DNA of 64,000 nt, from positions 7,192,001 through 7,256,000 of the forward strand of contig OZ234494.1 in the NCBI GenBank assembly GCA_965153455.1. Reading direction: 5' to 3'. This DNA is from Sphagnum compactum. Lineage: Eukaryota. Within the stretch, counting starts at the first letter, position 1. Every line of letters begins with the position of its first letter. Below are positions 377 through 61,723 of this stretch, one piece after another. The translations under genes were made by a program, and so were the position numbers. A model generated the notes under the pieces. That model searched no databases and had not been told where the DNA came from. It was given only the letters and a program-made list of their open reading frames with translations.

Positions 377-3300
377 TCTTCAAATTTTCCCACAACCCAA
401 ATCACTGAACTTCACAAACTCTCTCCACAAATTTTTCACACTCCCCAACACAGCCACAAACTCCCAATTCAGATGAAACCCAACTACGAAGAACAGAGAG
501 TCTGATGACTCTTGCTCAATACTACACCAGCTTCCATGCAACAAAAATCAGAAAAAAAAGAGAGAGAAAAAGACTATCCCTCTGAATGATATGCACACAT
601 TCTCTACTGATTTCAATGCAAAAGAGGTCTGGTGGAAAAAAAAACACTAGAGAACTCTGCAGCAAGAGCAAAGAAGCCGAGTCATAACCAATTAGTAGTA
701 CTACACAAGGACTACACAAGGTAAATTGAACACATTTGTTGTGAAAATGTGCATTAGAAATGTAGTCTGAGAAAGAGTGAGTTGGAGAAAAATTGTTGGG
801 ATTTAAACTAAGAATTGTTGCAGCTCAATTGCATCAACAGTAGTAGCTAAGATCTACGTTTGAAAATAAAAGAAAAAGAAGTCATCCAAATGGAAATGTG
901 TGCTTTTAGAAAAACCAAGCAGTGCCAGAAAGTGAAGAAAGAGGAGCCGTGGCTTTTCTTTTCCTTTTTCTTTAATAGACAGGCTCGATTTTCCAAAAAG
1001 CCTGCCATCATTTTTTCATGGCATTGCAAAAACCCTTTTTTCAAAAGAGTGCGACGATTTTTTTTTTATGCTGTGTAAATCCAACCCTGCAGGCTTTACC
1101 CTACAGGAGCTTTCATGTTTCAAAAAGAGAAAGAGAAGACCTTGCTTGGTTTAAGCCAAAGTCTGTTGGAACTTTGGGCCTTCACTTTTTGACTCTCAAA
1201 CCAAGCCGGTGCCAATACCACCAGGTTTCCACCATATCTCTGGATATGCATTTACGTTTTTTTCACTTTGTTGTTGGTCTCTCAGTAGATTTTATTTTAT
1301 TTTTTTTCCTGGCGAATTTTCAGCACTTGGCAACCAAAACAAATCCAGCGCCAATTATACAAAGGATTTTTGTGCAAGAAATGCACCAAAGGAGCTAGAT
1401 TTCTTCAAGGGAATTTTTTTATGAAATAGCTGTCTTTCGATACTGGATTTCAGCAAGTTGCCACAAAATATAGCAGAATTCTTCATTTTTTCTACTTTTC
1501 TCTCTGACCTGTAGCCAAACTTGGCTACAATTTGTTGAATAAAAACAATTGTGTACACAAGCCAAAGCAGACAGCTCAGTAGACAAAAAGCCTGTTTCCT
1601 GCATGGACAAAACTTTTTATGGTCAATGAACACCCATGCGGCCTGCACCTCAAAAGCTGCTGTGCAAAGGAACACACCATTGTTAAGAGTTTTTCAATGC
1701 CTTCTTTTCTCCTTTTTGGAAAGGAGAAAGATGCCTACAAGCATCAAAAAGGGCAAAATGTGGGGTGCAATGCAAACCCCATCACTAACCTGGCCTCACA
1801 CAACAGGAAGTCTCCACTCTCCACCAGTGTTGGGCAGGTCTTTGATTTTGGACCAAACACCCACTGGAGGGTTAGACATGGTATATAGGAATATATAACT
1901 GGCAGAGGCCAAAATTTGAAACACTTGCCCCCAGCAAATAGAATTTTTGTGGTACCTGCACTTGACTCCTACCCAGCAAAATATCTTAAATTCAAATTAC
2001 AAACTTGAAAGTACTTTGCCGGTTCTTGCATGAAACCTGATGGTTCTTTGATTCTGATTTCCTCCAAATACCTGAAACCAGCCAGTTCTTTGATTCAGGT
2101 TTTTGAAATACCCAAAACTGGCTGTCACTAAAAAAATCAAGTAAACACACCTACACTGACCTCAACCTACACCCCTATTTGGGCCTCTACTAGTGTTTAC
2201 TACATTCCACGAAGAGTGTGGATTATACCCATACCCACCAATGAACATGAAAAATTGAACATCCACAAACTCTGCCTCTGTTACCTGTACCCACACTTTC
2301 ATTTTGACGCAAAAAATTTCCAAAAAAGTTAATAGAGTCAGAAATTCACACTTTCAAAATTAAGGAAATGAGGAGTTTTATGACCCACTGGAGAATAGGT
2401 TTCTGCCAAATTGGCACAACAAAAAGATTCCTTGAAAACATTGACACCATGTACTGATAAGTTCATTGTAGTGTTAATTTTCAAATATTGAATAATTTCT
2501 TTATCAAGGATTAGAACATAATAAAACAGCAGAAATATACTTTTACAGTCAAAACCTTTACAGTGACAAAACTGTTGATAAAAAATATCCACCCCAGAAA
2601 TTCTTTCAACCAGCATCATTTCTAGATTCACATTTGAGAATTCAACATATATAAATTTCTGCCAATTGCAAATCTTTTTGACAATGAGAATGTGGTTACC
2701 TGAAAAGTGTCAGAATTCAATGTGGAAAATCTCCAAAGCTATTCCCATACAACAAGCAAGAGATGTGGTTGCCTATGAGGCTTGAGACCACCTCCCCCTC
2801 TCACGTCCTCCATTCACAAGCCATCCCAACACTCTTGCCTAAACAGTTCTCCAGCAGTCCAGTGTTAAATCAACCTCTCAAAGAGTCATAACCAAGCATG
2901 ACATACTTTGTTGCAGTTCCTGTTGAGATGACACTAGCAACCTCATGCATGCATCTGCTCACAAGATTGTCTGGTAGAAACAAAAGGTTTCCTATGCTAT
3001 ACTATCCACATTAACTCATTCACTACCCAGAGTTCTTAAACCCAACAGAGTGCTACATACTATCTTTCACAGCATCAAAGAACACATTACTTCTCTTTTT
3101 CTCCCCAAAAGCCAACCCATAAGGTCCAGAACATGTAAAAACAGACACCCAAGAGTCCTCATTGGCTGCACAATACAAAAACTGACTGACCATGGTCATC
3201 ATTTAGAGAAAATACATTTGGCTTTTCAGCTACATTTTCTCTACTCCATAAAAACTAACTGACAACAGTCATTATTTAGAGAAAATATATCTGGCCCTTC

Positions 3301-3421
3301 AATTCCATTTTCTGTCCTCCACAGCACAAACCCTATAGACTCTTCCAGAACCTTGTGTCTACCTACTGAACATACCAAAATTGATTCCTTATGTTTGCTC
3401 AAGTGGATCAGTTTCACAATT

Positions 3422-6298
3422 TCACTTTTCTGGAATGGTTGGCTCCCCTAGATTTACAAATGCCTTGGCTCGAGCAAGGCGCCCTGCCACAGCCTCCCAG
3501 GAAATGAGCTTATCCAGAAATGTATTCAAGTAATCAGGCCGACGGTTCTGGTAGATCCCACCACCCAAATGTGTTATGCAAAACTCTGGTTGGGCATAGC
3601 AATCCACAGCACCATAGCAAGATTTTATTGCAAGTCTCTCTCCTTGCAAAATTTTAGGAGAGAGACTTGCAATGTAGTAATTTGGCCTGCTGATGCTGTT
3701 AGACACAAGTAAGACATATCAAGCTTGGACTTCCCCAGCAGAACTACTGGGCAAATATGGACAAAAAATATGTAATATTTCCACTGCAACAAGGACAGCC
3801 TTACTAACCTGAAAGTCAAGGTAATACGCATGCTGCAGCCCAACAAACCCCAAAATCCCATTAGTTCTAGAACTGTCACATTCAGATGACAATGATACAT
3901 GAATGTATGTCAGCATTAGCAAACAAGCCTGAATTATTTATAGTGTTGTAAGACCTACCCAATTCTTAAAGGTTCAAGAAAATCGAGGTTGACATCTGTT
4001 GCAGAGTTGAAGAGTGTGAACTTCCCTAAACCCTCTAGTCTTAATAAGCCATTAGAAGCTTTGAAAACCCTACCTGATCAAAAGACCCAACTCTCTGGAC
4101 CAATAGGCACTGCACCTCAAAACATGCAAATGTCCAAGGGAAACTGACCAAATGTACATGTTAACATTGCAACCAAAAAAAAAGTATATACATACCTCCC
4201 AGACATCCACAACCGTCAATGGCTGCAACATGTCAAGCAGCATAAGTTAAAGTTGTATTTTGTTCACAACACAAGAAACCAAGGTAACTTTGACCTTCAC
4301 TTGTCACAAAGCAGAAGTTGTAGAATGTAGGTATCCTGCTGAAGTTGCAACAAACAAAAAACAACTTCCTTACAATGTATCCCCAGATGAGAGGGTTGAG
4401 AGCATTCGAGGTCTTCAAAACTGAAAGCTTTGCATCCTTCACTGCACTCTCACAGAAGACTTCAATGTTAGTCTAAGACCCATCTGCAGGAGAGCATAAC
4501 AGGTTCTTCTTGACTGTATCCACTCAGGATCAAAACTGCTAAGGAGGACAGTGGCAACAAGCATTTGAGTCACCAACAAAATGGTCGTGCACTTACATAT
4601 CAGCCACACCCAGCCAGAGCCAAACTGACTCACACCTGCAGCCTTGAACTCCTTTGCAAACTCCTCAAACGACCCAAAATCTCGCTCAATCAACTCCAGC
4701 ACCTCACCATCAGGTTGTCCACCACCACCCGGATATATTGATGACCAGAAGAAGTCATGATTCCATGCCTGAAGGTAGTTGGACCATCCATCCAATCAAT
4801 GAACCAGCACTGTAGTGCAAAACTGCCACAGTAGTATTCATAATTCATGGATTTGAAGGTTTCTATGAATTCCAAATAGCAAAAAATATTCTAACTTCCA
4901 ATTTTACATCAAATGAAGAGGTGGAAGTTGAACCTGGCCAGCATTATTGAAGCAAGCTTGTGGATTCCCATTGTTGTAGGACAACTTCACAAGCTCTTCA
5001 AGGTTTTTCCTTTCTAAATCTGTGCCATCAATTTGCTTATTGAGGTTATCAATGTATGCCCTATGATGTTTGCCCCAATGAAATTCCAGTGTCTGCTTGC
5101 TCATGTGCGGCTCCAACGCATCCTGCCCTTACACACAAAACCCAAGTTCAGAAAAACCCCAATTATTTCAACTCCTTATCACATTACCAGAATGGTTTCG
5201 TTACATATTGAAGCATGCTTTTTTTTAACAAAAGGGTAGCAGGACTCACAAGGGCATAGGGAGGTGTTCGCAGTTCAAATTTTGCCATAGGAAGCACCAC
5301 TTGCTGTGGCCTCCATGCTGCCCTTCTCTGCAGAGATTCAAATCATCTAGGTTGTCAGAACCTCTCGCACAATTGCTGCACACATTACACAGATTAGTGC
5401 TGTTTGTCAATGTAAAAGAAAGGCACTCCAATCAAGACAAATCAGATCATGGTTCTGCGGCATAGTGAGACTTTGGGAAAGGGTTTAAGGTTTAGGGTTT
5501 TAGGGTGCACTCCTACTACTTCTATGCACAAATCTGATTGAGCTTAACAAATGATGGCATGGAATTATCTGAATCTTTTTCCTTTTTTCATGTGGGGCTC
5601 AAGGACAGCAATCTGGAGCTAGGATCACCAAACCTGAGATCCACTCAGACACATGATTTGAGGCAAGAGAATTCTCAATTCCATAACGAAGTGATGAGGA
5701 CTGCTTCGTACAACTTTCGAGCAACAAGTTTCAAGCCCTAAACCCTAAACTCTAAAGTCCTGGTCAAGAAACAGAACATACTTAGACTTCACATATTCTC
5801 TGCATGTAAAGCTTGATTATATGACTAGATTTGTGAAAGAGAATTCTCAAATTCCAAAACGAAGTGATGAGGACCGTTTTGCACAACGTTCGAGCAACAA
5901 GTTTCAAACACTAAACCCTTCCCAAAAGTCCTGGACAAGAAACAGAACATAAGACCCTAACATATTCTCTGCATGCGTGCCAAGCCTGATTATATGACTA
6001 CAGCAGTGACTGGCCCCCAGCCAGGACCACGCTACAAAGCCACAGTTCCAACAGGAAGCCAAAGCACGAAAGTGTAGAGTCGAAAACACCGCACCAAAAT
6101 GACTGTACTCACACAGACACAGACATCGCGTGTGCTGATAATATAATATAATGTGAGGAACATCAGCTTCGAAACAGAAATCTCAAGACAAGACATTGTT
6201 CAGAAATTACATAACTCGGGAGAGGAGCGGCGGCCGGAGAGGGGAAGCAAGCGTGGACGATAGAAGAGGGAGCTCGTGCACGTCGCCGTGGCTGCCAT
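3422..6298 (-). CDS. FSD3: Plastid iron superoxide dismutase, FSD3-like
   Basis: GT-AG exons 5327-5250, 5122-4934, 4768-4597, 4441-4374, 4222-4196, 3832-3809 and 3547-3422 join in frame: [32 protein letters not shown]...[14 protein letters not shown]...QFGSGWVWL...[18 protein letters not shown]...[17 protein letters not shown]. All metal ligands are present, the NNAGQ Gln is Fe-type, and the VNLGEP tail is FSD3-like. A likely transit-peptide exon starts at ATG 6298 ([18 protein letters not shown]...); its exact splicing to 5327 is unresolved. Confidence 0.93.
5667..6000. repeat. ~170-bp tandem duplication in a 5' intron of the FeSOD gene
   Basis: AGAATTCTCAA..AACGAAGTGATGAGGAC..TTCGAGCAACAAGTTTCAA..CAAGAAACAGAACATA..CATATTCTCTGCATG..TGATTATATGACTA occurs at ~5667-5827 and again at ~5840-6000. 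Confidence 0.85.
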
Positions 6299-6435
6299 CG
6301 CTGCTCCCCCCTCTCTTCTCTCTTGTGCATTCCATGTTTCTCCCAGCTGCCCGAGATTATATATCTGCACATAGTTGTTACTGCGGGCAGGACAAAGTAC
6401 TGCCTGGTTTTGTTTTCCTTGTCTGCCCGTAGGCT

Positions 6436-6722
6436 CTATCCATCTTTTTCTTAAAAAGATCGTTCATGTCTGGGTATCATCCATCTTCATCTTCATCAGC
6501 AAAAGATGGATGATACCACACACTTGCTTTAGACCCATGATATGCATGTTTGGGCCCAATCCATCTTTTTTCAAAAGATCATCCATTTTCAACAAAAAAG
6601 ATGGATGATACCCATACACACTTTGGACCCATGTTATGCACATTTTGGCCTCATCCCTCTTTTTTTCAAAAAGATCATCCATGTTTAGGTATCATCCATC
6701 TTCATAAAAAATAGATGGATAA
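6436..6722. repeat. Foldback/MITE-like block of short inverted repeats upstream of FeSOD
   Basis: Recurrent ATCATCCATC...AAAAGATGGATGAT pairs at ~6476-6513, ~6578-6610 and ~6691-6722. Confidence 0.55.
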
Positions 6723-8879
6723 TAATACTGCACACAACCCTAAACCCTAAACCCTTCTAACTACTGTATATGTACCTCCCCAAACTCTGTCATAATTTGA
6801 TCTCTTGCAACATTATGGTGCTACCACCCATCCATTTCCAGCTCTTTTAAAACCATCCTCAAGATACAATTTTGCTTTCTTTAAGACATTATTGTTGCTA
6901 CATACCTAATTTGAAGAAGCAACATTATCTGAAGTGTTCCCTTATTTAGACTTGCCTTCCTTCTTGCTAATATGCCTAAGATTTGATTCTAAGCTAATTT
7001 GCACATGGTGGCACCACACTATAGTCCTATTATCGAGAGACTGTAATGGCATTGTTTGGGCATAGGGTCTGTCGCAATGATCTTACTGCCAATGCATTAG
7101 AAGGATGTGGATGTCTAGTTGGCTGCATCAAGGGTGAAATGAAGAAGATTTCAAACAATTGATTTCAAAAAATACATTCCGACTGATCAGATCATAGAAA
7201 ATTAGATTTTGCACTACTCAACATATTTATTTCTTTGCAAGTTTCATGAGGTAAGTACACCCATAAACCACAATGTTTTCTTATGCATTTCAGTGTTATT
7301 CGTTTTATGGGTTTTATGTTCAATCATGGTTGGTTCATGCATTTTAATGTGATAATTTAGGGTTTAGGAAGGTGACAGTTGATCAACGAAGGGCTAGTGT
7401 GCTTCGGTCAAGTTTTTCCAAGCGTGTTAGCAATGCTGGATGGGAGACCTTGAGTAGGGCAAGATATGCCATTGATGAGAAGTTGGCTTGAGAGGGAGAG
7501 GTTGAAAGCGAAAATGATGTTTTTTTTATGCCACCAAAAAGCCCCCAAATAGAAGATCCCAATTGTAATGTAGTTTCATATACCCAAGCTCATTTAGAAG
7601 TGAATGGTGTTGTGCACGCTTATGTTGTTAAACAACTAACAAATTTAGAAATTGTTCATTCTTTAAAGTCTCATGCACTAGAGTTGTCTAAATCAAAACA
7701 ATCTTGGAAATCTATTAAAGTCATCAAATTAGGGGTAGTAAATCACCATTAGTACCCCCTAGATTTGATCATAGTCGAAGAGAGGACCATAAATTATCCC
7801 ACTTTGTGGAGGGTGAGCAAAAGATATCCACATCCAAGCCACTACATCAACCTTTGCAAATCCGAGTTCTAGGGGATAGCCAACCCCCTTCCACTTTTAC
7901 AATCATCAAAGTTGAAATTCCATCAACCAAATTTGTTTTTTGCCACTAAAACACAGTAGATGTTTCCATTTCTTGGTTATGTTTTGTCAGTTTTTTGTTG
8001 GGTTTAAATGGGTTATTTTTTCAGAATAAAATTTCCTTAGCACATGGTGCTTTTATGAAATTCCTTTCAAAGCCTATGGCCATGGTTTCATATGCAGTTG
8101 ATTACTACTTAAAAGAAATGATTAAAAAATGTAGCAAGTCCTATTGAAAGTATGTGTGCCTTGACACTTTAGTCATGGGTATTGCCATAACAAACAATCT
8201 TAGTTCCATAACTTGGTTCTAGAGTTGACATTTAATAAAGCCATGGGTATCTTAGTTTTGACTCTTTTAATATTACTATGAAAGGTGCTTATGGTTGTAA
8301 TTTAGGTGCTAATGTTTAAGGCTTAAGGAATTGATGCTATTGTTTTCAAATATTTTATTTGAACCTCTAACTCACTTGTTGGGATCTGTATGTATATTTA
8401 ATTTTGGTTGTTGTGTTAGGTTGTTGGAACATATAGTAACACCATGAAGAAGTTACCGAAAGTGGTGAAATTTGCACGATCTAGTAAGGAGACTAGATTA
8501 AGTGAAGATGAAACAGAGACAATCACTAGTCTAGAGAAAAGTATTAAATCAATTAAAAACATTGATTATATTATCAATTAGTTGTTGAAGAATCCTCCCC
8601 CTAATGCTTTTCCTTTCAATGATTTCAAGGATTTTCACAACTTGTCGCATGAAAGAATTAACCGCCATAGGTTGAAAATTGGCAAGGATGTTTTGGAAAC
8701 AGAAATGATTCAGGTGTTTGGCCATGCCAGAGGAAGAAGTGGGTATTTTTTTGAAAATGTCCATGATGATAAGGTGTTGGATAGGATTAAAGAGTTATAT
8801 CCTATTGTGTATGGCAAATATACTATCTCAAAGTCTTAAGCTACTAAGGAAGGAATTTGCAAAGGGGATTGTGGTAGAG

Positions 8880-10143
8880 GTGGCACTATTATGGCACCTA
8901 TCATTAAACTGACCAAAAAAACAAAGACTTGTTTCTAGATAGAGGAGTGTTAGAAGGCTTGGGAGTTGATCAAATAAAAATATATTGAAGCATCGATATT
9001 GAAATCACCAAATTGGAAGGTGGAGTTTCATGTTCATGCATATGCATCATAACTAGTTATAGGAGCTAAGTTGTTACAGAATTTGATAGGGAAGAGTGAT
9101 CAACTGGTGGTGTATGCTTCTAGATTTCTAAACAAAGCAGAACAAAGTTATGGCACAACAGAAAGAGAAGCTTTAGCAATGGTTTTTGCTTTGCCCAAAT
9201 TTAGACATTATTTGTTGGGTAATAAGTTTGTATTTTATGTAGATCATGTGGCATTGGTCTATTTGGTCAACAAACCACAAGTTTAAAGGATAATAGCTAG
9301 GTGGTTGTTATTGTTCTTAGAATATGACTTCACAATAGTGTATAAGCTAGGCATAACTCATGTAGTTGCAGATGTATTGTTAAAACTACTAGACATTATA
9401 AAACTCATAGGTGTGCCTGATCAAACCACAGATGCAAGTCTATTTTACACAAAGCCAGAATGGCTAAATGATGTAAAAGATTTTATGAAAATAGGGCAAA
9501 TTGAGGGAACATTATATGTACAATAGAAATAGAGACTAGTAAGGAGAGTAGAACCTTTCGCATTGAAGAATGGTGAATTGTATAGAATGGGCCAAGACAA
9601 TAGATTACAAAGATGTTTGACAACTACAGAAAGCATAGATGGTGATGAGAGAACTGCACAAAGGACCATCAGGAGGTCATTTTACAACTGAAATCATGAA
9701 GAGGAAGATATTGGATGCAAGATATTGGTGGCCAACTCTGTACAAAAATGTGAATGATTACTGCATATCTTGTGATGCATGCCAAATAATAGGAGGATCG
9801 ACAACTCAAGGTTTTGCAAAGTTAGTCACGAGTCTTCTAGAGGAACCATTTATGACATGGGTACTTGATTAAATGTGGGGCTGATTAAGCTAGTAGGTAG
9901 ATATATATGAACAAATACATTCTTGTAGCCATAGATTCTGCTACTAAGTGGGTGGAAGTAAGAGCATTGAAAACCAATACTGCAACCGTAACAACAAAAT
10001 TTTTATATGAGTGCATATTAACTAGGTTTGGATGTCCTTTAACTATAGTCATAGATTAAGGGGTTCATTTCAATTAATGATGTTATCAAATATTTGATTT
10101 TAATTTTCTGTTGAAACATGTGAGTTCTACAACCTATTATCCT
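8880..10143 (+). mobile_element. Degenerate Ty3/gypsy LTR-retrotransposon pol fragment (RT C-terminus, RNase H, integrase)
   Basis: YASRFLNKAEQSYGTTEREALAMVFALPKFRHYLLGNKFVFYVDH (RNase H). ELHKGPSGGHF...YWWPTLYK..NDYCISCDACQ (integrase H2C2). [14 protein letters not shown]...[12 protein letters not shown] (integrase core). RT-RH-INT order is gypsy-type. Many stops; truncated at STTYYP. Confidence 0.92.
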
Positions 10144-10680
10144 TACTACTAAGAGATGTGGTCCTAGTTAGTACACGGTCCACTCATTTTTTAGTGGATT
10201 AGACCAATTCCATTATAGTGACATAGTGGAATGGGCTAGTGATTGGGGTTGTGTGGCAACGACCAGTGGAACCCTAGTGGATTGGTCTACTGATACTATC
10301 TACCACAATCATGGAAAACCATCCAACGGTCCATATTGGGCCTTCTTTGTCATTAGATCAAATGATTAATTTAAAATATGGCAAGTTTTTCTCCATTGAA
10401 ATGATGCCATGTGGCATGTGTAGGCATTCATTTGATGTGTTGCCACATGGCAAGCATAGGCATCCAAGTATATGTTGCCATGTGGCAAACATTAGACATC
10501 CAATGAGGTGTTGCCATGTGGCAAGGCTAGGCCGATGCACCTATCCACTAGGTACCTAGGTAGCTAGACCTATGGACCTAGGTACTTAGGCCTGGTCAGC
10601 CTAAGTTAAAAAACTTAACCTACTAGGTGGCTAGCATGGCTAGTGAAACCTAGTAAGCCTAACCTAGGTTGGTTTCGCCA
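10144..10680 (+). mobile_element. Candidate CACTA-like left terminus and subterminal repeat region of a large DNA transposon
   Basis: The gypsy integrase stops abruptly at TACTACTAAGAG (10144), which resembles CACTACTATAGA at 28363. It is followed by clustered TGCCATGTGGCA/TGCCACATGGCA palindromes and CCTAGG runs. No right terminus was identified. Confidence 0.45.
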
Positions 10681-10695
10681 ATTAGGTTGCAAGAT

Positions 10696-10760
10696 TTAGA
10701 ACTTGAACCTCTCACCTCCACTTTGAGGGGCCAAGTCCTCACCCATTGCACCACTTCCTT
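10696..10760 (-). other. tRNA-like (Pol III A-box/B-box) relic inside TE DNA
   Basis: Minus strand reads GGAAGTGGTGCAATGGGTGAGGAC...GGAGGTGAGAGGTTCAAGTTC, with an A-box-like TGGTGCAATGG and a B-box-like GGTTCAAGTTC. No convincing cloverleaf. Confidence 0.45.
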
Positions 10761-11769
10761 TTTATGTGAAATAACATGTCAACAAAAACTCATAACACAT
10801 TTAATTAATTTAGGACTTTACAAAAGTTCGAAAATGCTAACACATAAATTTCAATGTTAAATTTTTTAGTCTTTCAATTATAAATGACTTGCTAGTCACC
10901 AAGAAAAAGTTTGCTAACCATAAGAAAAAGCTTTTGAAAAACTACAAGTTACATTCCAAGTTGTACAAATTAAATTTTGAAGACACCGTGGCAAGTTGTT
11001 TAAGAAAAACAAAAAGAATTTGAATGATGAATTAATGAAATACAATTTACATAGATCAAACAAACATTATATTCAATATTAGAAAATTCAATTTGAATCT
11101 TCAGGTGTGTGGCCATTAGGCTTGGAACGAGATGAAAAGAAGTTGCAATAATTAAAAAATCCTGAAATTTATATAACAAGAGAAAAAGTTGTGAAATATA
11201 TTCATGTTGTATATTACATTGAACAACCTTCATTAAATGTTTTAGATACAAATTGGACTTGGTGGCCACCAGGTTGTCCAAACAGTTGTCCTAAATTTTT
11301 AGGAGTCCTGAGATAGAATATCCATTATATTAAAAATCTTTGTATGGCAACCTAAAGGGCACTTTAAATTTGTGGATAATTTTAAACACAATGTGAAATG
11401 TTCCTAGTGTTAGAAGTTTTGTGACTGTCCATACTTGAATTTGCAACAATAACGACACCGTTTCGGAATTAAAAATTGATTAACAAACATTGTTTTTCCC
11501 CTTTCATAGATGCAAACAATGTTGTGTACTTTACGAACAACGATCCAATTCAACTACACAGAAAAGTCAAAACCAAAAAACAACTGCATATTAAAACATA
11601 TAACAATTATATGTAAAGTAACAAAAAATGTAAAAAATAAATAAAATAAAAATGGAATGATTTAGATTACATACTTAAATAGGGCTACTTCTTGCGAACA
11701 TCAACAATATCATTATACATATAATAGAGGAACCAAGAATAATTTTTCGACGAAGAATTTAAACAAGGC

Positions 11770-12360
11770 TTAGAATACTTAACCATAAAGTCATAATGAA
11801 CTTGAACCATTTTGGCCAGTGGCAATCTGACCAAGGGTGGCCACAAATGGGATGGCAGGTCTAACCATTGCACTTTATTTTTTGACAACATCTATCCCTT
11901 GAATGATTCAAGAAAAAGACCAGTCCATTTCAGATTCTGAAGCGCCTCGTTGGGTTCATCGTCAATTAACAATGTTTGATCTTCATTTCCATAATCTTTC
12001 CCATGGCAAACATAATAAACACATTTCAAATCTTTTAAGGAATAGTGGGACCCATGTGAAATTTCACCAGACGTTTTGGAGCATTGTTCACGTCCTTAAT
12101 TGAAAACGAATCGCAAGAAACTTTTAGGCATGAGCATGGGAAGAACTTCCAATACATCCTCATAATTCATACAAGACCAAATTGCAATATGAAACTTTTG
12201 AAATGCCTTACTGAGAAAATTCTCCACTTTAGCTCTAACTTCCATTTTGGTCTTGTCAACATTTTTTCCAAACACTTTAGCATTCCTTTGTAGAATAATT
12301 TAAGGTGGGAAATAACACAACATGCCATTGACGCTGAAAACCAACAAGTTTGTAGGCTCA
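11770..12360 (-). pseudogene. FCP1/NIF-like HAD phosphatase pseudogene (copy 2)
   Basis: Frame-shifted pieces: NLLVFSVNGMLCYF (degenerate DxDx motif I), RAKVENFLSKAFQKFHIAIWS, DQTLLIDDEPNEALQN (motif IV, ~11975-11945). Confidence 0.7.
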
Positions 12361-12959
12361 AGAGATAACGAATGTAGACATGAACACATTGAATTGCCTT
12401 TGACCACTACAGTCAGCTTGGATGAAACATTGAACTAAAACAATAAAAAAACTGGTCAACAAAATGAATTAAACATGTGGGAAAGGATAATGTGCTATCA
12501 AGATTTACAATAATAAATTAAGAGCAAAATGTCCATGTGCTAACAATAAATATTTTTGTAAGTTAAATATCTAGATAACAATATGCAAGAAAACATCAGG
12601 CAGCCGCTAGGTGACCTAATAATAGATGGAAGAAAATGATACTTAAAAAAGTCATTAAAATACAATGGAATTACTAAACTATGTGCATGAGGCGCTTGGT
12701 GGCCACAAGGCCATTTGCATTAAAATTTTAGAATAATTTATGAAAGACTAACAATATGTTTGTGAAATGCCCAATTATCAAATTAGAACTAGTGGACGCT
12801 TGTGGGAGAGTAAATGATATGGAACAATCCTTACATTGGACTTTAGTACATTAGGCAAGAAAACAATTGATGAAGATAAAACATGCACCCATCGAAATTC
12901 AAGTTAGTAAACCATCCATTCATAATGATTCCATAATAAATAAATAAAATAATTCATCT

Positions 12960-13620
12960 CTTTTTATTTAAAAATCTCAATTTCACTTTGTTATAAAACG
13001 TTTCATCACATTTTGCATAACAAAGAGTAATCAATTTTGCATACTGAAGGTCATCAGGAAGCACATCTGTAACCTTACCAAAAGGATTCAACTTCACAAA
13101 TTTATAAACTTGCATTCCAAAAAAATGCAAAGATTCCAAATAAGGAAGAATGGTTTAGAGCAAATAATTAACCTCACTATGTAACCCGTAGAATGTCTAA
13201 GAAAAAATGGCATTAAAAGGAGGATTAAACAAACTCTTATGAGGCATATCGTCTATCAACAAGGTATTTTCAAATCTTGTACCAGGAAATTGAACAAAGA
13301 AATCGCGATGGTTTTTATGGAAAACTGGTTTGTTTGGCTTTTCAGGTAAGAAATGATCATTTTTGAAGCGAATGATTGGTTCACTATCCTACAAGATAGA
13401 AGGGTAACGCCAATTTTCTTGGCGATAATTTCCAAATGCCTCAAAAAGTTTCTTTTCACTGTTGAGGACCATATGTACACCGTAAATTTTTTACACAAGT
13501 GGACAAGAATTCCTTGAGGCCAAGCCTTAAAACCATCAGGCGAGTTCTAGTTTGATCCTCACTTGTAGCAACAAGAACACCATTCAGGTCGTAAATTAAA
13601 TGATAGTCACTCACCTCCAA
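12960..13620 (-). pseudogene. FCP1/NIF-like HAD phosphatase pseudogene (copy 1)
   Basis: YHLIYDLNGVLV...LRLGLKEFLSTCV / KFTVYIWSSTVKRN...KPVFHKN...ENTLLIDDMPHKSLFNPPFNAIF. This is the motif order of plant FCP1-homology domains, broken by frameshifts. Confidence 0.8.
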
Positions 13621-14839
13621 TGAAGCACGTTTTTCCTGCGTGGTATGTGTAAGAAAACTAGAAGCTGTTGTCATTCTTGCACGTCACCCTTGCGAAAACT
13701 TGAAGTGGCTTCATTGTCTTAGCAACTGACATTCACCAAACTTGAAATATTTGGAATCTTTTGTAAAACAAGCTTCAAATGTGGAGCTTCATTAGCAAAA
13801 CTAGAAGTGTTTACAATTTCCTGGAACTTATAATGGGCAAAACCGGAAGACTTTGCATTATCTTGCGAAATGCCAAGTATTGTAAGTGGAGAAAGGAGAA
13901 GAGGGCTTAAACATACCCCTTCTAAATCTAAATTGAAAACTAAAATACTCTTTTAAACACCCTCATCTACAATATTAACAATGGAAAATGTAGAAAACCC
14001 TCTTATTCCTATAAAAAAATAGAAAAAATGCCCCAAAAGATGGTCGCCAAATGGTAGATGTGGATTAAATCCTGCAAACCTCATCCACATTTACTATAAC
14101 AACATATTTGCATTACAATATGCACATATTCACAATTCTTGCATTGATTCTACACACACCTGTCTCTATAATTCATCAAAACACCATATTCATGGTTATT
14201 CATATAACCAGAATTTGTACTTCAAAATACAATGTAAAAGATCTAGAAACAGAATTACACTTTATTTCCTTATATTTTTGATACTATAGAAAATTCACAC
14301 AACAATATGAATATGAAAATCATTACAGAAGTATGTACTTCTCTCTTGTTTATTGAAAACTTCAAAAAAACTACAGCAAAAGAATTCCATGTTTTGTTAA
14401 AATGAAATCAAAACAACAAAATTAAATTTGTGGTATCTCCAAAACATAATCTCTTGTTTCTGTTACAAATTAGCTACACCTATCTTCACTCCCAAAATTG
14501 TGTGTCAAAAAATGAAATCCTTTCCCCCATAACTTCCATATTTGGGTAGTCCCAAGTCACCATTAACATGATTCAAAACCAAACAAGAATTCAAAATTTA
14601 AAACCTCCAATGTCCAATGATCAATTCCTATCCTTAATGCCTTATTCATTCAAAATAATGCAATCAACCTACCCCCTTAACAATTGTCAACTGCATTTTC
14701 TCCCTCAACCGCATTTTGAAGGAGGAGGTTGGTACTTGGATTTGCTTAGTGGGATGGTTCCCGCTAGGAACAAACTCTTTTTGAAGATTGTAAACAAAAA
14801 GTAGACCAACAACAAGAAGCTGGATTTTCAATCAAGCAC

Positions 14840-16118
14840 ATGCCTCCTATGATGACACAATATGAGTATTCAAAGTGGCCCCCCAAATCCAAAAAAAGGA
14901 AGGAACCTACATCCACCATTGTTGATTGGCTTGATGAAGTTCGTTCATCAAAACAAGGACAGTTAAGGAGATCACCCTCCATCCATGTTCCACACCCAAG
15001 ATCTTTGATGTCACATGTATTGATTGCCCCTGTTCCTAACCTTGGGATAATCCCTAGTTTTGTTCCGATGGTTTCACTTATAAACTACAAATGGCATGAT
15101 TGTGAAATGCATGTTCAATTACACAAAAAGGTCTTGCTAGATTTCAAGACCTTCACGAAATGGATGAAAGACGTTTCAACAAATAATGTGAATTTGGTCA
15201 AAGGCATAGACTCATGGAGATGTGTAGACATGGTTTTCATAAACATTCCTAATAGCTTGCATGTGCATGACATTGAAGAGCACGTCCCTTCTTGGAACAC
15301 CCTACCTTGAGACAATTGGTTTCATTCCTTGTTCGGATTTTTGGAATATGTTTTATTCGACAATGGATGTGCACTTGTTTGGTGTAGTGCCAAATTGCTG
15401 TGATTACAAGAAAGGCTTCTGGCATTGGCATGTGGAGGCCACATTGAGAATGACCCAAACTTTCGTGTGAGTGAGCTTGTGAAGACAAATATAGTCATCA
15501 ATTGCTTGCCACAACTTGGTCTTACTTTTGGTTCCATCATAGCCATCTCCAACGTTTTGGTTTTCAAGAAACCACATAGTGCATTTGATTTTTCAAATGG
15601 AGCATCTTAGACAGATCCTTTTGTAGATGTCAAAATGTTGGACACCTTATTCAACAACATCACAATCGACATAATGTTTTGCAAGCCGTCTGGAGAACCT
15701 TGGAGAGGGGGAAAATAGAGAAGCCCTATTGTGATTCAACAACTCATTGAAGCTTGTTCACCTCCAGAAGGTCGTATCCTTGATCTTTTTCCTATAACCA
15801 CTGAGTACCAATTGTGTGTTGGTTTTTTGCCTAGGCTCAAATTCATGCATGAGCTTCATTAACATCCAAGTGCATTCTATTGGATTTTAGGGTCTAGCTT
15901 TCTTACTGCCAAGGCATGTGGGAGGCATGTTTTTGGGTTTGAATCTGATGGGGAGATTCATGATGGCTTACTCTTGAGCATTATGAAAACATTTCATGTT
16001 GTAGACTTGCATGAGGAAATCTCTTCTCCGCTTGAACCCTCCTCCAGTGTAGTCGACTTTCAAAACATTGTGCCCATATCAGACATAGATTCATGGCTGA
16101 TCTTGAGGACTTTGACTA
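14840..16118 (+). pseudogene. Beta-class N4-cytosine/N6-adenine DNA methyltransferase (N6_N4_Mtase-like) pseudogene with intron(s)
   Basis: One frame from 14840, read through stops at 15308, 15401, 15608 and 15716, gives VDMVFINIPN (motif IV position), EYVLFDNGCALVW, and PWRGGK*RSPIVIQQLIEACSPPEGRILDLFP. After a 90-nt intron-like gap (15801-15890, ends TTTTAG) it continues GSSFLTAKACGRHVFGFESD, matching the LDPFxGSGTT..A...GR..IG.E.D SAM-binding end. A further GTAAGT donor lies at 16119. Confidence 0.78.
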
Positions 16119-17265
16119 GTAAGTATTTTTCATTTATACTTTCTCATCAATTTTTTCCATAACATTCTAGTGCATGTCAAATAGTTGCTAAAGTGCATTG
16201 TTTGCCAAAGTCCCTTCAACTCCAAGGCTTGATACAAGTTTGCCACTGTATGTAGAACATGAGGCACAACAACATGAAATAAGGTAGGCACATGAGAGGT
16301 GAATGAAGCTTCTACATTGGGATTGCAAAGGCAAGTAGAAGTCTTCATGGACGTGGAAGAGCAAGTGAAGATTAGATTAGTAGAACAACGCTAAGCTGCA
16401 TGGTTTTTTTAGCAATGTAAGTAATAGACTTGCATTGTAATAGTCAATTATGTTTTATGTTCTCACTTATGTTTAGTTTGAAATTGCAATAGGTTCATTA
16501 CCTACATGTGGGCTACTCAACTTGGTTTCGAATATATGACATGTTTTTTTAATATTTTTTTAATAAATATGATTTTTTGAAAGTGATGATTTTTTATAAT
16601 TCAGTATTTTGTCTTTTAAAAATAATAACAATTTCAAATCATAATCAAAAATTGATTTTTTAAATTTTTATGTTTTCTTGTATAATAAGCTACAACTTTT
16701 TTTAACACATCATATATATTGTATTTTATTTATATGTAATAAAGAACTTTTGAAATTCTAAAATTCTAAATGAATTTTGGAATATTTTTTAATTTCAAAA
16801 GTTTTAAATCTTCACATATTTTAGGGTATGAGTGTTTTTTGAATGTGTTTAATAGGTATTTACTTTCTTAAAATTTTCCCATCAATAGTTTTATTATATT
16901 CGTCCTTCTGATAGTCCTTAACAAAATTCATTCCTTTTGATGCAATAGGTGTTCACTTTCAAAGGCTTTAAATTAAAATTTAAACTCAAAATTTAAATTT
17001 ATCAAATGGATTTATGGTTTGAATTATTTGACATTCATATGAATGAAATATTTTTTTTGCCATGATTGCCATGCTTTTAAATGGTAAAACATAATTTTTT
17101 TTTAAATTTTGACTTTTTTTTGCCATCGTTCGATACTCTTTTTGACTCATTTGATTATGATTACACTTGAATTGTATTTGTAATGAGGTAGTTCAAAACT
17201 CAAAAAAAGAAAATTTAATTGATTAAAATTAAATTTTTAGTTTAGGACTTAAAAAAATTTGGTGA

Positions 17266-17390
17266 TTGGGATGAACTTCACTTAGTGGCCATTAGATTTA
17301 GCAAATTTGTGATCATTTTACACATGAATGTCATTTGAATGGATGTCTCAATTAGCTTATTGCTAAATTAATATGATAATGTCATCGAAA
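17266..17390 (+). repeat. Dispersed repeat shared with ~40743-40860
   Basis: GGGATGAACT[T/C]CACTT[A/G]GTGGCCATTAGA[T/C]TTA[G/A]CAAATTTGTGATCATTTTA is present at both sites. Confidence 0.75.
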
Positions 17391-17958
17391 ATTCCCAAAA
17401 AATAACATCAATGGGTCCAAATTCTTTAAGATGAACCAAAATCTTGTCACAACGTCACCTTTTTTTTCTGTTTTTTTACCTCAAATGATTTTTCATTCTT
17501 GACTTCAAGCTAAAAGGCTAAGAGCTAAAAGTTAAAAAAGAAAAAGAAAAGTGCATGTCAAATTTTCAAATGTCTTTCTCCCTTGGGGAGAAGAGGACCC
17601 AATTGCAAAGGAAAGAAAGGTGTTGAAAAATTTGATTTTGATTTTTTTTTTTGGGTCATAATTTTTTGTTCTTAACCTAAACCATTTTAGATATCCACAT
17701 TTCAAGAGCTTTTCAATGATATAAAGAAAGTTTTGATTTGAATAACATTGCCACTTGAACTTTCTAGTCAAACATTCAAGAACTTTTTCCTTGGGAAGAA
17801 TTGTTCCCCTGAGGAAGGAAACTAGTCCCCTTCTCCCAAGCAACTCCCACTAAAAGCAAAGTAATATGTCAGTTTACTTCCTGACAGAACCTGTTGCTAG
17901 TGTGTCTTTGTACTCTGTATAAAGTTTGTCTTACTAGTTTGTACTATAAACCCTAAAG

Positions 17959-20546
17959 CTACCACTGTAGCTGCCGAAGAGAAGAACTTCGACGTTCGTT
18001 TTCGGCAGCGACATTGAGGAGAGCTTTTCTGAGATCCTCTGCCTCCATTAGCTTGTGGCCGTTCATCTGGTCATAGGACACGCCGCAGCTAGAAATTAGT
18101 ATCAGTATTGAGATCAAAAGTTACAAAACTGTTTCACGTAGTACAGAACCAAAATTTTAGTGAAGCGCTACAAATTCAGAAACATGTATGTACATGATGA
18201 GCTAGAAACCAAGTTGCAAGAACGACACAAAACATGAGACGTGTTTCGGCTAAATGTAGCTGGTCCCCCAAAGAGCAATAACGATTACTAGTTTCTCTGG
18301 GATGCTTGAGAATTTATTCCAATGTGGCCCAGCTTTAAGTAAATTTTTGAAGTTGGATGAACGGGGTGTGAATGTGTAGCAACAAAATGTAAATTCTAGA
18401 ATTTACCAGTTCGGGAATTCTGGATTTTATGTCCAACCGACCCTAGTGTTTTTGCTACTGGGCATCGATCCAGAGGCGCACCTCGATAACGATGTTGTTG
18501 ACAAAAGTATCTGGAGTTGATGAATGGGTGGCATGTAGAATATCAAGGCCCAGTAACTCCAGAGATTGCACCAGCCGCAGGAGCACACCTGGATTTCTCT
18601 TGCAAGTTATGCGGAGGTGGTATATCGCACGCTGATCATTTATTCTTTGAAGTTGGACCTGAGACTAGCCAGCATTAATTTCCTTTTGAAATTTGGTATC
18701 TAAGAGTTAGCTATTGATCGGAAGAAGATCGAGAAGAGTCTTCGAGTTTCTCATGTCGACCAAGTCTTGAATTCTATAGACTCAAGATTCAGGAACATTC
18801 GAGACAAGATTGATGCATAAAAGAGACATGCATGTAGGACCGGCCAGGATTTTGGAGAAAAATAACTTACAACCTGAAGAGATTGGCTTGTGGATCCTGG
18901 GAATCCTCCAGATTCCATCGTTCTAGCAGACTCGGCAACAAATTTCCCTAGATTGATACCACTGCAATCGCTTATGTTTGAAACTGGGTCGCGGACTCCA
19001 ATTGATCTAGCTGAGCACTTCTGTTCCAGTGCTGCAACCTCAGTTTCAATATCGATCACCTCCTTCTTAAGTTCAATGACATAATCGATCGCATCACCTA
19101 AAATTGAAACTTTGTCCATCTGCAGACATACATGTAAACGATCGAATTTCACGACCATTGCTCATATACTGCAAACGTTCAGCACTAGCGCCGTGGACAG
19201 ACAAACGCAAGTACTCAGAAATGGTTAGCGAGTGGCTGTCGTTGTAGACCTTCTGGTTGAGGTTTCATGGCACTACGTACCGGTGGTACTTCATGGGTCG
19301 CTGTTGCAGAGCAGGGCTGTTGGTTGACGTCTTTTGGTGAGGATAACAAAGAGGACAAGGAACGAGGGGACCTTTAAGAGATAAACAAACCGTAGGCAGA
19401 GGACTTGAATCAATATTGAGACTACACAAAGAAGGGTTACAGAAACAAGCTGTCCTATAATTCGTCGAAGCTTTGTTGCTCGCTTTCCGTTAAATGTCAG
19501 TACATTTTAAGCTTAAGGTAAGATAAGGTGCACTAGCTAGTTAGTCACTGGAGGTTTTGAAACTCTAAATGTCATATGAGAGTACCTCGAAAATTGAGAC
19601 TGGATCTCACTCTCGAAATGCAATGCATTCTGTTGCAAGTGTTAGTGTTGAAAAATTCGGAGACCTAGACTATAACTGCGGTCGTATTGATAGAGCAATT
19701 TACCTTGCTGATTTTGGGAACCAAGCCTCGTAGAGAGTAGAGACTATCATTGAGCTTCTTCCTGCGCTTGCGCTCCGAGGCCAAATTCTTGGACACTGTC
19801 TTGCAGCCAGTATAGAACCTTCTGATGCCTTTTATTGGGTGCAACACCGCCTCCCGTAGTTGTTCGGGCGAGTTAGTGGGGGGCCTAGTTGTCACTCCTG
19901 ATATCTCGCGCGAGGACTCAACTTCTCGAGGAGGACTCGACACTATACGAAGGTCTTGTACAACAAGATTTGATGCCCCGTCTATTTCACCAGATTTAGA
20001 GTTTGATTCATGTGGGTGATCTCGTGATCCATTATTTGTAACTACGACCTCATATTCGTGTTTTCTAAATTTCTCTTCTAAGCCTGACGTATCTGACTCT
20101 CTGATTCTTATCTTTGCTGAAGTAGTGGACGTTACTATATTGCCTTCCATTCGCTGCTCTGGGGGTGCCTGAAATTCATTCAACAACTCCTGCCAGTCCC
20201 ACATTTGGTCATGATCGACTTTAGAGTCATTCGTAGCGAAACTGAACACGCTCGCGTGAACTCCGTGCTGTTCATATGCAATTGGTAAAGAATTAGTTGG
20301 AGCTGAGTATAGTCCCTCTAGCGTCCAGAGGGGATCTTCACATCGTGTTGAACTTTTGAGCAGCTCTGGTTCTTGATAGGTTTGACGGGGCGTGTTAGTT
20401 TCCAGTACTCTCACCTCTTGTTCTCTGACGTTGCAACGACCTCCACACATTTCACGATGCCGATCGGCCTGCAGTGGGTTGATGGGCATCGAAGTAACTC
20501 CGATCACTTGTGGCGGGCCATCATATGTTCCAGCTGCTTCGTACAT
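17959..20546 (-). CDS. Group III bHLH transcription factor with C-terminal ACT-like domain (AMS/ICE/FIT-related)
   Basis: Exons ~20546-19704, 19119-18871, 18658-18482 and 18066-17959 give SKNLASERKRRKKLNDSLYSLRGLVPKISK|MDKVSILGDAIDYVIELKKEV, then YHLRITCKRNPGVLLRLVQSLELLGLDILHA and MEAEDLRKALLNVAA...*. The intron at ISK|MDK is in a position typical of plant bHLH genes. The start is uncertain and further 5' exons are possible. Confidence 0.88.
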
Positions 20547-23500
20547 GTTTGAAGCTTCGTCATTCTCGGTTGTGAATGGCTCCAGAGTCTCTCCAGGGTA
20601 ACCGGCAAGAAAGTAAAACTGGTTCTGAAACATCACAGTAGGAGAGAGGGATATATGTGGACGAAAACGAAATCTTCCACGGCACTGCTTGTCACAAATG
20701 TTGCCTCAAGTTGCAGATGTACAAGTCGATCACCTACAGTCCGCCCATGGATCCAATTTCTTTTGTTGTTAGCACATAGTGTCGACAGTTTTCAGGGCCT
20801 CTAGACGTGTGCCATAATCCTGCGATAAGAAGTGAAAGAGTTGTGTTTTGGATATAGAATTGTCAGGCTCTGAAGTATGGACCTACTTAACCAGTGTACC
20901 TGGCATCACCAAGCGCTCCCCCTCGGCCTAATACTGCGATGACGCCACAGAGGAGCAACGCTCGCTTGGAATGATTTTACGGAACTCTCTTGGTATGATT
21001 GCACTAACTCAGTTCAAGCGCCTTTACACCATTTGTACCTGCCATTGAATGCACGATGAAAGCATATCATTCCTTCAAGTTGATCGATGACCCATCTAAG
21101 AGGTGCAGGAATCTCCTCGGAAAGGGCTATCAATATGTAAATGGTTCTCACGTTACTACCCCAGCTTTGTTCTAATTACTACTTGGTCTCAGAAACAATC
21201 AGACGATCGAGGTCGAAGTTGTGATCGATGACATTCTGCGGAGATCTCTCATCAGTGTTTGTATGCGTAGAACACATTCAAGGTCCAAGGGATTCTGTGC
21301 TTAATTTTTAACAAGTCCTCCCATTCTAGTTGCTTGGAAATTTTGCCATATGCAAGCATGAAGAGCGAATCGTAACTTTTGAAGACCTATTATAAAATCA
21401 AAACCATGGCCAAGTTCTTCCATCTACCTGATGGCACCAAAAATTCTTAGACACTCTGCCCTCGTCCTTTCTTTAAGACGCATGGCATGCTCTCGGACAC
21501 CTGCATTCTCATCACATAATTCTGAAAACCAATGAATATTTGCACAAACCCTGTCGTCACACAGAGATTGCTGCTCTGAGGAATAGGGTAAACCATAAAA
21601 CTCTGACGATCTCCCGCATGCATCAAAATTCTGTAAAACTCTATGACCAACAGGACATCAGATGAGCAACTAAACGACTCAACAATTCAGAATCTTACAT
21701 CAATATTAGGAGCAACTAGCTAGGGAATCAACGATCTGATCGATTACTAGACACCTGAAGAATGTAAACACACCTTCATCATGAGTAGCGATGAACGAGG
21801 TAGGCTCCGCAGTAATCTTGACATACAATTCAGCAGTCTATGATCTGGTCATATACACCTCAAGGCTCAAGCCTTACAAACAAGATGGAGCATTCTTTTT
21901 TCTTTTTTCTCCGAAAAGTTAAAAGCTTGAGACCACCAGCTAGGCAAGCTGGGAAGATGCTATAAGCTATGGAGTGACCAGTGCTGCGAACTATTTAACA
22001 CCGAGTGACCGGTACTAGTGTCGATCAATTATTTAAACTTGAGGAAACTTCATTCCAGAAAGGATGCGTGATAATAGTGCGCGTGCTTGCCAAGTATGCG
22101 CTTGCACCACAACTCATGCATTGAATCAGCGCCTTTCTACAAACCTGCTTGCAACCGGTAAATCCAATGCTGCATTGACCACGCCCTTGGATCTAGACAC
22201 CCAACCACAACCTCTACAGTGATGGGTGCAAATCACGAAGTGATCTTTTTCAGTGGCGAATTCTCCATCGCCTATGTACAGCTCGAGCCTGATTCCGCCA
22301 TCAGTTTGAGTCTGGTCACCTCCACGCTAGATTCTTGGGGGGTCTTTGGATCCAGAGTTGACCAGTACTGGGCGGCGGTTCTGTCTTTTCATGAGAACTG
22401 TTGGTTCCGGTTCTTCTCAACACTTGAGAGAAAGAATCGACCCGGTTCTCTTCTCAAAATTATTTTAGATTTCTCTTAATCAATCAGGGTATTGTATTTC
22501 CTTTAACATTTGATCAAGCTCATTCTCAGATAGGACGGTTCTCATAAATTTGATAACAATTAATTGGTTTTCATATCCAGTTTTCACAATCCAGATCTCA
22601 AATTTATTTTTATTTTTATTAAAAAATTCAATCAGAAAATAATAAAAAATAAAAAATAACTAAGTCTAAAAACTATTAAAATGTGACACAATTTTTTCTA
22701 TAATAAACTATATCTCAAAGTCTCATCTTTTTCAACTGTTTTTTCAAATTCATTTAACTCCTTTTTTAAAACTTTGCTTCGATTTCATTTAACTTCACTA
22801 AACTAGAAAAAGGTTTACAACCAATCCTAGGGTCATTAGGCCAATTTCTTTTCACAAAAAATAATTAATTTAAATTATCCGACACAAATGACATCTCTTA
22901 AGATGAGTAAATATTCTCGCCAAAAATAAAATCATTTTAATCTTAATTTGTGAACCAACAATGTTTAAAATTTGACAAGTAAAGAAATCCAACTATACAA
23001 AAAAATAGATTCTTGCTTTTCTCACCATTGGAAAAGACATTTGATATCTTTGCATTGAGTTGTAATTTCCTGAAAATCAGAAGTTCCTTGTCACTAATTC
23101 ATTTATGCTTATTGTCATCTCAAAAATGTGCAAACTACAATTTTCATCAACACCCTAGTCAATAGTGACATTTCAAACAAAGGGTGCATATGATGATGAC
23201 ATTTTAATTACTTGGGATCTACAAGGTTTTCCTATCATATCTTCAACGATGGCCTTGCCTTCCTCAAGGCCAATAAATGAGGACACCAAATGTAAGTTTT
23301 TGAACTTAGGATCCAACATCAAGGACAACATGTTATGGGCCTTCTATTTTCAAATTAAAAATAAAATTAAACATCACAAGTTTTTTTTCTAATGTTAGAG
23401 GCCAAAAAAACTAATTTAAAAGCAACAATGGATTCCTCTTCCATAAAAGTATCAAAAGAAACTAAAATTTCAATTTCTTCTTTCAATTTAAAATAAAATG

Positions 23501-61612: not shown

Positions 61613-61677
61613 CTCTACGCAATTGGCTGCAACCCAAAACCTCTCGCACCTCCCCAAACCCAAAAACCAAGAACCGC

Positions 61678-61681
<4 letters not shown>

Positions 61682-61721: not shown

Positions 61722-61723
<2 letters not shown>

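Follow-up and report, generated by a model that had tools for sequence, protein, structure and literature searches.

A decayed Sphagnum locus, probably a relic of a dispersed moss protein family with a divergent beta-class amino-methyltransferase domain

Bacterial-type amino-methyltransferases are rare in eukaryotes, and the two that have been studied, rotifer N4CMT and Marchantia MpDN4MT1, altered thinking about N4-methylcytosine (4mC). We asked whether a methyltransferase-like locus in a 64,000-nt stretch of Sphagnum compactum DNA (contig OZ234494.1, positions 7,192,001 to 7,256,000 of the forward strand; the whole stretch is called the window, and coordinates are counted from its first letter) belongs beside them. 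A preliminary description had proposed a horizontally acquired, intron-bearing N4C/N6A DNA methyltransferase travelling as the cargo of a DNA transposon, whose enzyme might mark DNA with 4mC or N6-methyladenine (6mA). We find instead that the locus is probably the dead relic of a dispersed, intron-bearing family, the core of which would be a very divergent descendant of the beta class (PF01555-type) of these enzymes. That class is defined by the linear order motif IV, target-recognition region, motif I, according to the part of a published survey available to us (PMC7544214).

Translation of the locus revealed a motif-IV-like stretch 5' of a motif-I-like stretch in one frame of the + strand (14768-16119), the second of these split by an intron-like gap. 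The motif stretches and the TTTTAG hexamer reported in the preliminary description were found in place and in a single frame: CVDMVFINIPNSL, read in the translation of 14768-16162, contains VDMVFINIPN (15224-15253); EPWRGGK, a stop and then RSPIVIQQLIEACSPPEGRILDLFPITT are encoded at 15695-15802; and TTTTAG at 15885-15890 is followed by GSSFLTAKACGRHVFGFESD, the translation directly after base 15890 being GSSFLTAKACGRHVFGFESDGEI. The exon-1-like body (14768-15803, +) extends from a basic stretch, KKRK, into motif I, of which it holds the first half, and matches fragment relatives at 71-79% identity. Four in-frame stop codons interrupt it (15308-15310, 15401-15403, 15608-15610 and 15716-15718), and a fifth, at 15860, lies inside the gap. 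Residues 21-47 of the relative P0023 and 47-73 of P0074 matched, by tblastn, an upstream N-terminal segment with a GGGWYLDL motif (14679-14762, +; 60.7% identity) in another frame, and their similarity resumed at 14768 in the main frame. Homology thus begins near 14679, not at 14840 as first thought, and a frameshift near 14765 separates 14679-14762 from the main frame. The exon-2-like part (15891-16119, +) holds the remainder of motif I (G-SSFLTAKAC), motif II (GRHVFGFESD) and a C-terminal tail. Relatives P0012 (85.7% identity), P0016 and P0025 match 15884-16081, and the end of P0012 corresponds to the shifted-frame tail ..RFMADLEDFD, which is reached only past a second frameshift near 16078; the true stop is TAG at 16117-16119. 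When all the fetched proteins but one (P0020, discussed below) were compared with the window by tblastn, every match fell within 14679-16081, so the window holds one copy. Because it has four exonic stops, two frameshifts and no GT at the conserved splice junction, we conclude that the locus is a pseudogene and assign no function to the window copy, in agreement with the earlier view that it is dead.

We searched 1.84 billion representative proteins with the read-through frame using phmmer and obtained 49 proteins with an expect value (E) of 1e-3 or less, 20 of them at 1e-10 or less and 5 at 1e-30 or less, which places the resemblance, on these values, far beyond chance. Most of the 49 are short open reading frame (ORF) fragments of 30-80% identity. 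A 5362-aa Neisseria invasin-domain protein (P0020; E 2.3e-11) was rejected as a summed repeat artefact, its score adding up ten weak repeat matches, each worth 31-33 bits and covering 53 residues at about 40% identity. For 10 of the 49 matches the source name was checked, and among these the only full-length named relatives were four hypothetical proteins of Ceratodon purpureus: M758_9G084500 (758 aa), 3G218200 (810 aa), 1G310400 (788 aa) and 6G158200 (803 aa). All four are intact and lie on four contigs of 16.8-28.7 Mb, that is, on four chromosomes, bearing out the expectation that intact relatives exist. By tblastn, residues 436-651 of the chromosome 9 protein (P0034) matched window positions 15224-15979 at 26.9% identity (E 2.3e-10). 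A word-based homologue search found no match with the window frame, three Ceratodon proteins only with P0034, and 11 proteins, none both new and long, with a profile of 46 family sequences (A1). A metagenome scan with the window protein found no match, and one with the relative P0005 found a single locus three times (L001, L002 and L003; 99.6-99.9% identity). On the 106-kb contig L001, which comes from another source, positions 9371-10761 (approximately) hold a second, independently decayed copy with 33.8% identity to the window read-through over 314 residues and no detectable C-terminal exon. Read from translations, its flanking genes are alpha/beta-hydrolase-like (1225-2145) and pentatricopeptide repeat-like (18662-20305). 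A search of the literature, supplements aside, found no description of this moss family.

What kind of protein the family encodes is indicated by several comparisons that point the same way. Among ten relatives, PF01555 was found below its gathering threshold of 26.7 bits in three (15.7, 15.1 and 12.4 bits) and not in the remaining seven; all three matches fell on the C-terminal, S-adenosylmethionine (AdoMet)-binding part of the model, where PF01555 was the top family. The A1 profile matched six PDB sequences at E of 10 or less, five of which are beta-class DNA methyltransferases: the best were M1.HpyAVI/DpnA (5hek and 5hfj; E 1.8e-5 and 2.4e-5; chain residues 74-229), with weaker matches to CcrM (E 0.68) and two M.BceJIV sequences (E 1.7 and 2). 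Alignment of A1 with E. coli YhdJ, annotated as a DNA adenine methyltransferase, by hhalign gave a probability of 90.5% (E 1.3e-6) over 203 columns, covering YhdJ residues 31-257 of 294, whereas a control alignment with PrmA, a methyltransferase that is not permuted, gave 0.35%. The alignment places the family stretch cVDmIilDI.Dg on YhdJ SVDLIFADPPYN and also pairs ..vLD...T/GaS...GRH..a.E (the slash marking the gap point) with YhdJ, remaining colinear from SVDLIFADPPY to GRKFIGIE. Motif IV before motif I, as in the beta class, is thereby upheld. Beyond this shared order of motif IV, variable region, X, I and II, which M1.HpyAVI, CcrM, YhdJ, M.PvuII and M.RsrI all have, the family is colinear with YhdJ 31-257 and M1.HpyAVI 74-229 in the beta-4 strand (vDmI..D), the ..nGC.l.. 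strand, the K-x-P helix start, the ..vLD.. beta-1 strand and motif II (GR..a.E). In the window, the motif-X-like stretch (15695-15803, +) reads EPWRGGK, a stop, RSP..QQLIE and then RILDLFPITT with the first base of a Gly codon, and aligns to YhdJ and M1.HpyAVI. Foldseek, run on a low-confidence AlphaFold2 model of the P0034 domain, listed beta-class amino-methyltransferases or Type III Mod subunits in all of rows 1-38, including CcrM, M1.HpyAVI, M.PvuII, M.BceJIV, M.MboIIA, rotifer N4CMT, M.RsrI and TTHA0409; coming from such a model, this is a weak though consistent lead. In an Atlas language-model look-up, only a lead as well, 22 of the 30 nearest clusters belonged to the PF01555-bearing set (score 0.94); the first 260 residues of P0034 yielded nothing usable there.

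Several results weigh against this assignment. Pfam returned no family at E of 10 or less for the window frame or its pieces, and a six-frame Pfam scan of 9000-18001 found nothing at the methyltransferase-like gene. The C-terminal part, compared with the PDB by phmmer, gave only a chance match to the RuBisCO small subunit (E 1.2). NCBIfam models gave nothing significant in nine relatives, the best being CcrM at E 0.087 in one of the nine. AlphaFold2 models of P0034 had a mean predicted local distance difference test of 37.7 at full length and 46.1 for the 283-aa domain (predicted template modelling scores 0.27 and 0.43); the best Foldseek E was 1.8e-3, none being 0.001 or less, with TM-scores of 0.2-0.3. 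Most relatives, moreover, are known as ORF fragments only. One might then suppose that the resemblance is fortuitous and the frame unrelated to methyltransferases, as the absence of any Pfam or PDB match for the window itself and the poor structure models would allow; but four kinds of comparison agree on the enzyme class and on colinear motifs, and the PrmA control was negative, which makes coincidence very improbable. Taking the Pfam results on relatives, the PDB profile, hhalign, Foldseek and Atlas together, we conclude that the domain is distantly homologous to beta-class enzymes of the PF01555 type, with a fold predicted mainly from sequence profiles. Membership of PF01555, as first proposed, holds at the level of profiles (the PDB comparison and hhalign) but not by Pfam, the check on which the preliminary description had staked its own refutation and where the window has no family and the relatives score 12.4-15.7 bits against 26.7.

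We then considered whether such a domain could methylate DNA. In amino-methyltransferases, motif IV is (D/N/S)-P-P-(Y/F/W), with an aromatic residue that stacks on the target base, and motif I is FxGxG, as given in the available part of PMC7544214. Twenty-six rows of A1 cover the motif IV position; leaving out three misaligned C-terminal fragments, we tabulated 23 members. The canonical tetrapeptide occurred in 0 of the 23, and none had Pro-Pro or an aromatic fourth residue. At this place, where beta-class enzymes have DPPY, the window has NIPN, in the strand and loop VDMVFINIPN equivalent to motif IV by hhalign and the family table (15224-15253, +); the four intact Ceratodon proteins have DAPE, and others DILD, DVAD, DVAN, EIPD, DIPN, GIPE and similar, for a consensus of [DNE]-[IAV]-[LPA]-[DEN]. 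Since intact members also lack the canonical tetrapeptide, the NIPN of the window is, by this alignment, a family trait and not a decayed DPPY, and reading SPPY or DPPY in intact copies as a guide to 4mC or 6mA is impossible. Family motif I is D-x-x-x-[SNG]-T-G-[AS]-S, in which the one conserved Gly is split by the intron and a Phe occurs in few members; the gap had been placed in an FxGxG-type motif, and it does split a motif-I-like stretch, but one that retains a single glycine of FxGxG. Of 14 rows, 12 preserve the motif-II glutamate, and the W-[RK]-G-x-[KR]-E-K-x-P stretch, the equivalent of HPTQKP, is well kept, so that some residues of the AdoMet pocket, namely this glutamate and the K-x-P of motif X, may have been retained.

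Because the catalytic tetrapeptide is absent in 23 of 23 members and FxGxG is down to one glycine, canonical N4C/N6A activity appears unlikely, and the active 4mC/6mA enzyme first envisaged is doubtful, motif IV being apparently lost throughout the family. Two considerations pull the other way. Loss of catalysis is judged here from motifs alone, and a derived active site acting on another substrate is possible; and the domain is strongly conserved in Ceratodon, which shows that it does something. Over residues 386-665, P0034 is 91.4% identical to P0075 and 88.6% to P0076, whereas identity between the Ceratodon paralogs falls to 76% in the N-terminal 230 residues and to about 60% in the linker. 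The domain thus appears to be constrained in Ceratodon and is, from these identities, the best-conserved part of the proteins. N-terminal extensions of 150-430 aa contain no known domain in the family, and there is no restriction partner. The intact 758-810 aa Ceratodon proteins, which have basic KKRK/RKNK stretches, are probably nuclear. By analogy, intact members are more likely to be non-catalytic or re-purposed modules like METTL14 and MTA9, whose motif IV is degenerate (EPPL and NALW, respectively) and which serve as non-catalytic subunits, as far as the accessible text of PMC7544214 describes them. In both cases a methyltransferase fold would be under selection despite an eroded motif IV, and we prefer this functional analogy for the intact proteins; METTL14 and MTA9 differ in belonging to the MT-A70 family and not to PF01555, and the moss family has no known partner.

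The intron-like gap bears on how long the family has been in plants. Comparison with spliced Ceratodon proteins places the gap at 15804-15890 (+; 87 nt, phase 1), starting AGTACC, ending TTTTAG and containing a TAA. The preliminary description had put a 90-nt intron with a CTGAGT donor at 15801-15890; the gap and its TTTTAG acceptor are real, but it is 87 nt long and starts with AG. The annotated Ceratodon proteins run ..DWSANTGASIIAC.. through the gap point (..NTGASI..) with no insert. ORF-called fragments of at least five other subfamilies (P0035, P0037/P0061, P0043, P0047 and the P0049 cluster) contain unrelated insertions, in frame and about 30 to 45 residues long, that fall exactly between ..ST(G) and (G)AS... 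The 3' end of the window gap is pyrimidine-rich ahead of the TTTTAG acceptor. At the homologous donor junction, G/AGTACC (slash, the junction), the first two bases are AG and not GT, and the GT a single base downstream would, if used, put the sequence out of frame. The relatives P0001 and P0033 have the same ..EYQ.. (GAGTAC) at the donor point and read straight through it. The comparison supports the gap as an intron position common to subfamilies only about 25% identical, and to that extent favours the proposed intron. Shared by such distant subfamilies, this position argues for an intron-bearing family long resident in plant genomes.

How the copies came to be dispersed, and whether the gene was transposon cargo, is a separate question. 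For a bacterial-type N4C/N6A methyltransferase acquired horizontally as DNA-transposon cargo, with intact copies marking 4mC or 6mA, one may cite the beta-class homology, the dispersed copies, the decayed and CpG-poor state typical of silenced repeats, and an intron compatible with transposition at the DNA level. The dispersed copies include two Ceratodon proteins on different chromosomes, P0034 (9G) and P0050 (3G), identical at all aligned residues with 52 gap positions, which points to a duplication in the very recent past, or else to differing gene models for a unit that was copied not long ago. The observed/expected CpG ratio is 0.26 in the methyltransferase-like gene, 0.82 in a neighbouring basic helix-loop-helix (bHLH) gene and 0.13 in a Ty3/gypsy remnant. 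Against cargo status stand the catalytic tetrapeptide, missing in all 23 members; the intron position common to subfamilies of about 25% identity; the lack, bar the artefact, of any identified prokaryotic relative among the 49 phmmer matches, 10 of them with sources checked; and the surroundings of the gene. Neither strand of 9000-18001 showed a transposase domain, nor did the + strands of 1-9001 and of L001 4000-13000, on both of which Pfam recognized no family at all. The inverted repeats detected around the gene were no better than chance (E of 0.15 or more), and none brackets the L001 copy; self-BLAST of the window found neither a long terminal repeat (LTR) pair nor a second gene copy. The similarity of L001 to the window at the DNA level, in this one other locus compared, is confined to 221 bp of coding sequence (67%). 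With no transposase, terminal inverted repeat or LTR pair enclosing the gene here or at L001, cargo status is a conjecture, and the full proposal of an acquired, DNA-marking cargo enzyme is unlikely. We consider it doubtful, yet considerably less so, that the family is an ordinary, non-mobile host gene family expanded by segmental or tandem duplication and that the locus is one of its pseudogenes. In its favour, annotation treats the Ceratodon members as genes that have introns and long N-terminal regions, conservation in these proteins is highest in the methyltransferase-like domain, and the window and L001 copies are each solitary, close to host genes and not joined to any transposon protein. 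However, members occupy four chromosomes and include an identical pair, many decayed fragments of 30-80% identity lie on separate contigs, and CpG depletion is strong, a pattern more repeat-like than that of a stable host family. The dispersed Ceratodon copies, the identical pair, the many decayed fragments and the CpG ratio of 0.26 together suggest a repeat-like history.

Could the gene instead be an extra ORF of the adjoining Ty3/gypsy element, which has left remnants 4.5 kb upstream in the same orientation? The truncated remnant (about 9000-10100, +) has RNase H and integrase domains (RT_RNaseH, E 6.6e-24; RT_RNaseH_2; Integrase_H2C2, 2.4e-11; rve, 1.2e-3), and LTR elements with adenine methyltransferase domains have been reported (bioRxiv 10.64898/2026.05.21.726589). 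As far as the available part of that preprint goes, these DAM-TEs (DIRS and LTR elements) carry prokaryote-derived adenine-methyltransferase domains in retrotransposon polyproteins that have multiplied in eukaryotes, with negative results in heterologous assays; its description sets them apart from the moss family as an unrelated, T4/E. coli Dam-like family with Asn-Pro-Pro conserved and absent from Streptophyta. A sense-strand intron, moreover, would be lost on retrotransposition; two opposite-strand NIF-like pseudogenes lie between the gene and the remnant; no reverse transcriptase or gag was found upstream of the remnant (+ strand of 1-9001), nor an LTR pair in the window; and the L001 copy has no reverse transcriptase or integrase on its strand. 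We therefore give the gypsy origin very little credence. A giant-virus or phage origin was also considered; it is disfavoured by the intron and by the absence of viral neighbours.

We favour the view that the locus is probably a dead relic of a dispersed, intron-bearing family with a very divergent beta-class core. Its copies would have spread by DNA-level duplication or within a mobile unit and then decayed under cytosine methylation, the CpG ratio of 0.26 being what such decay would leave. Recent horizontal acquisition, as first proposed, appears unsupported, since no prokaryotic near-relative was found (none among the 49 phmmer matches but the artefact P0020, with sources named for 10 of them), the intron position is shared, and the best similarity to a solved bacterial enzyme has an E of about 1e-5, at the profile level; in general terms, the fold probably goes back to an ancient prokaryotic or viral source. 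More tentatively, mosses may harbour an undescribed, mobile-like nuclear protein family with the beta-class fold, in which an acidic [D]-[IAV]-[LPA]-[DE] loop has taken the place of the tetrapeptide and the domain remains strongly constrained, at about 90% identity between Ceratodon paralogs against 60% in the linker. If this rather speculative suggestion were true, the family would be either a methyltransferase whose substrate or chemistry is new or an AdoMet- or DNA-binding pseudo-enzyme, and the latter could be a partner, decoy or regulator of host DNA methylation encoded by a selfish element.

Comparison with known systems sets the family apart from both bacterial and eukaryotic enzymes. 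From the bacterial beta class it differs in lacking (D/N/S)-P-P-(Y/F/W) and FxGxG and in falling below the Pfam threshold, and it is eukaryotic, intron-bearing and N-terminally extended, with no restriction partner. The bdelloid rotifer N4CMT is active and alignable only with permuted bacterial N4C/N6A enzymes, according to the portion of PMC8885841 available, and Marchantia MpDN4MT1a/b cluster with prokaryotic N4C methyltransferases and are needed for sperm 4mC, according to the accessible part of bioRxiv 10.1101/2021.02.12.428880. Both have a PF01555-type fold, the one predicted for the moss family, in intron-bearing eukaryotes, one of them a bryophyte; the moss family is far more divergent, with an eroded catalytic motif. 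N4CMT chains appear only at Foldseek ranks 14-35 and are absent from the A1 profile matches in the PDB, and no named Marchantia protein is among the 10 of 49 phmmer matches with sources checked. The moss family would thus form a third, much more divergent lineage of the PF01555-type fold, in plants, one that annotation misses, with no Pfam call and the Ceratodon members entered as 'hypothetical protein'. It also has cautionary value: motif order alone suggests a DNA methyltransferase, yet because the catalytic motif appears to be lost family-wide, the family gives no ground for claiming 4mC or 6mA in mosses. Should the intact members prove functional, they would offer a new example of a conserved pseudo-methyltransferase, possibly repeat-linked.

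Other features of the window lie on both sides of the pseudogene. Upstream and on the opposite strand to it are two decayed NLI-interacting-factor (NIF)-like copies in tandem, a PF03031 phosphatase-like one at 11856-12257 (-; Pfam E 6.9e-11) and a second at 13197-13683 (-), recognized from the ORF translations DLNGVL.. and ..LLIDDMPHKS..; tblastn found no NIF in L001. Just 3' of the gypsy integrase remnant, four tandem units of about 35 nt (10392-10532) are each centred on the palindrome-like TGCCATGTGGCA. Downstream, a likely host bHLH transcription-factor gene (18751-20705, -) has at least two exon-like ORFs, read from translations (..ERKRRKKLNDSLYSLRGLVPKISK.. and ..MDKVSILGDAIDYVIELKK..). 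Just 3' of the pseudogene is a 34-nt imperfect inverted pair (16616-16649 and 17150-17183), which could be a small insert resembling a miniature inverted-repeat transposable element. A 110-bp dispersed repeat occurs at 17212-17320 and 40686-40795 (82.7% identity). Simple repeats of the GA/CT type occupy about 61200-62500, with ERERER and SLSLSL runs in the ORF translations, and 62234-62486 holds a 200-bp imperfect direct repeat.

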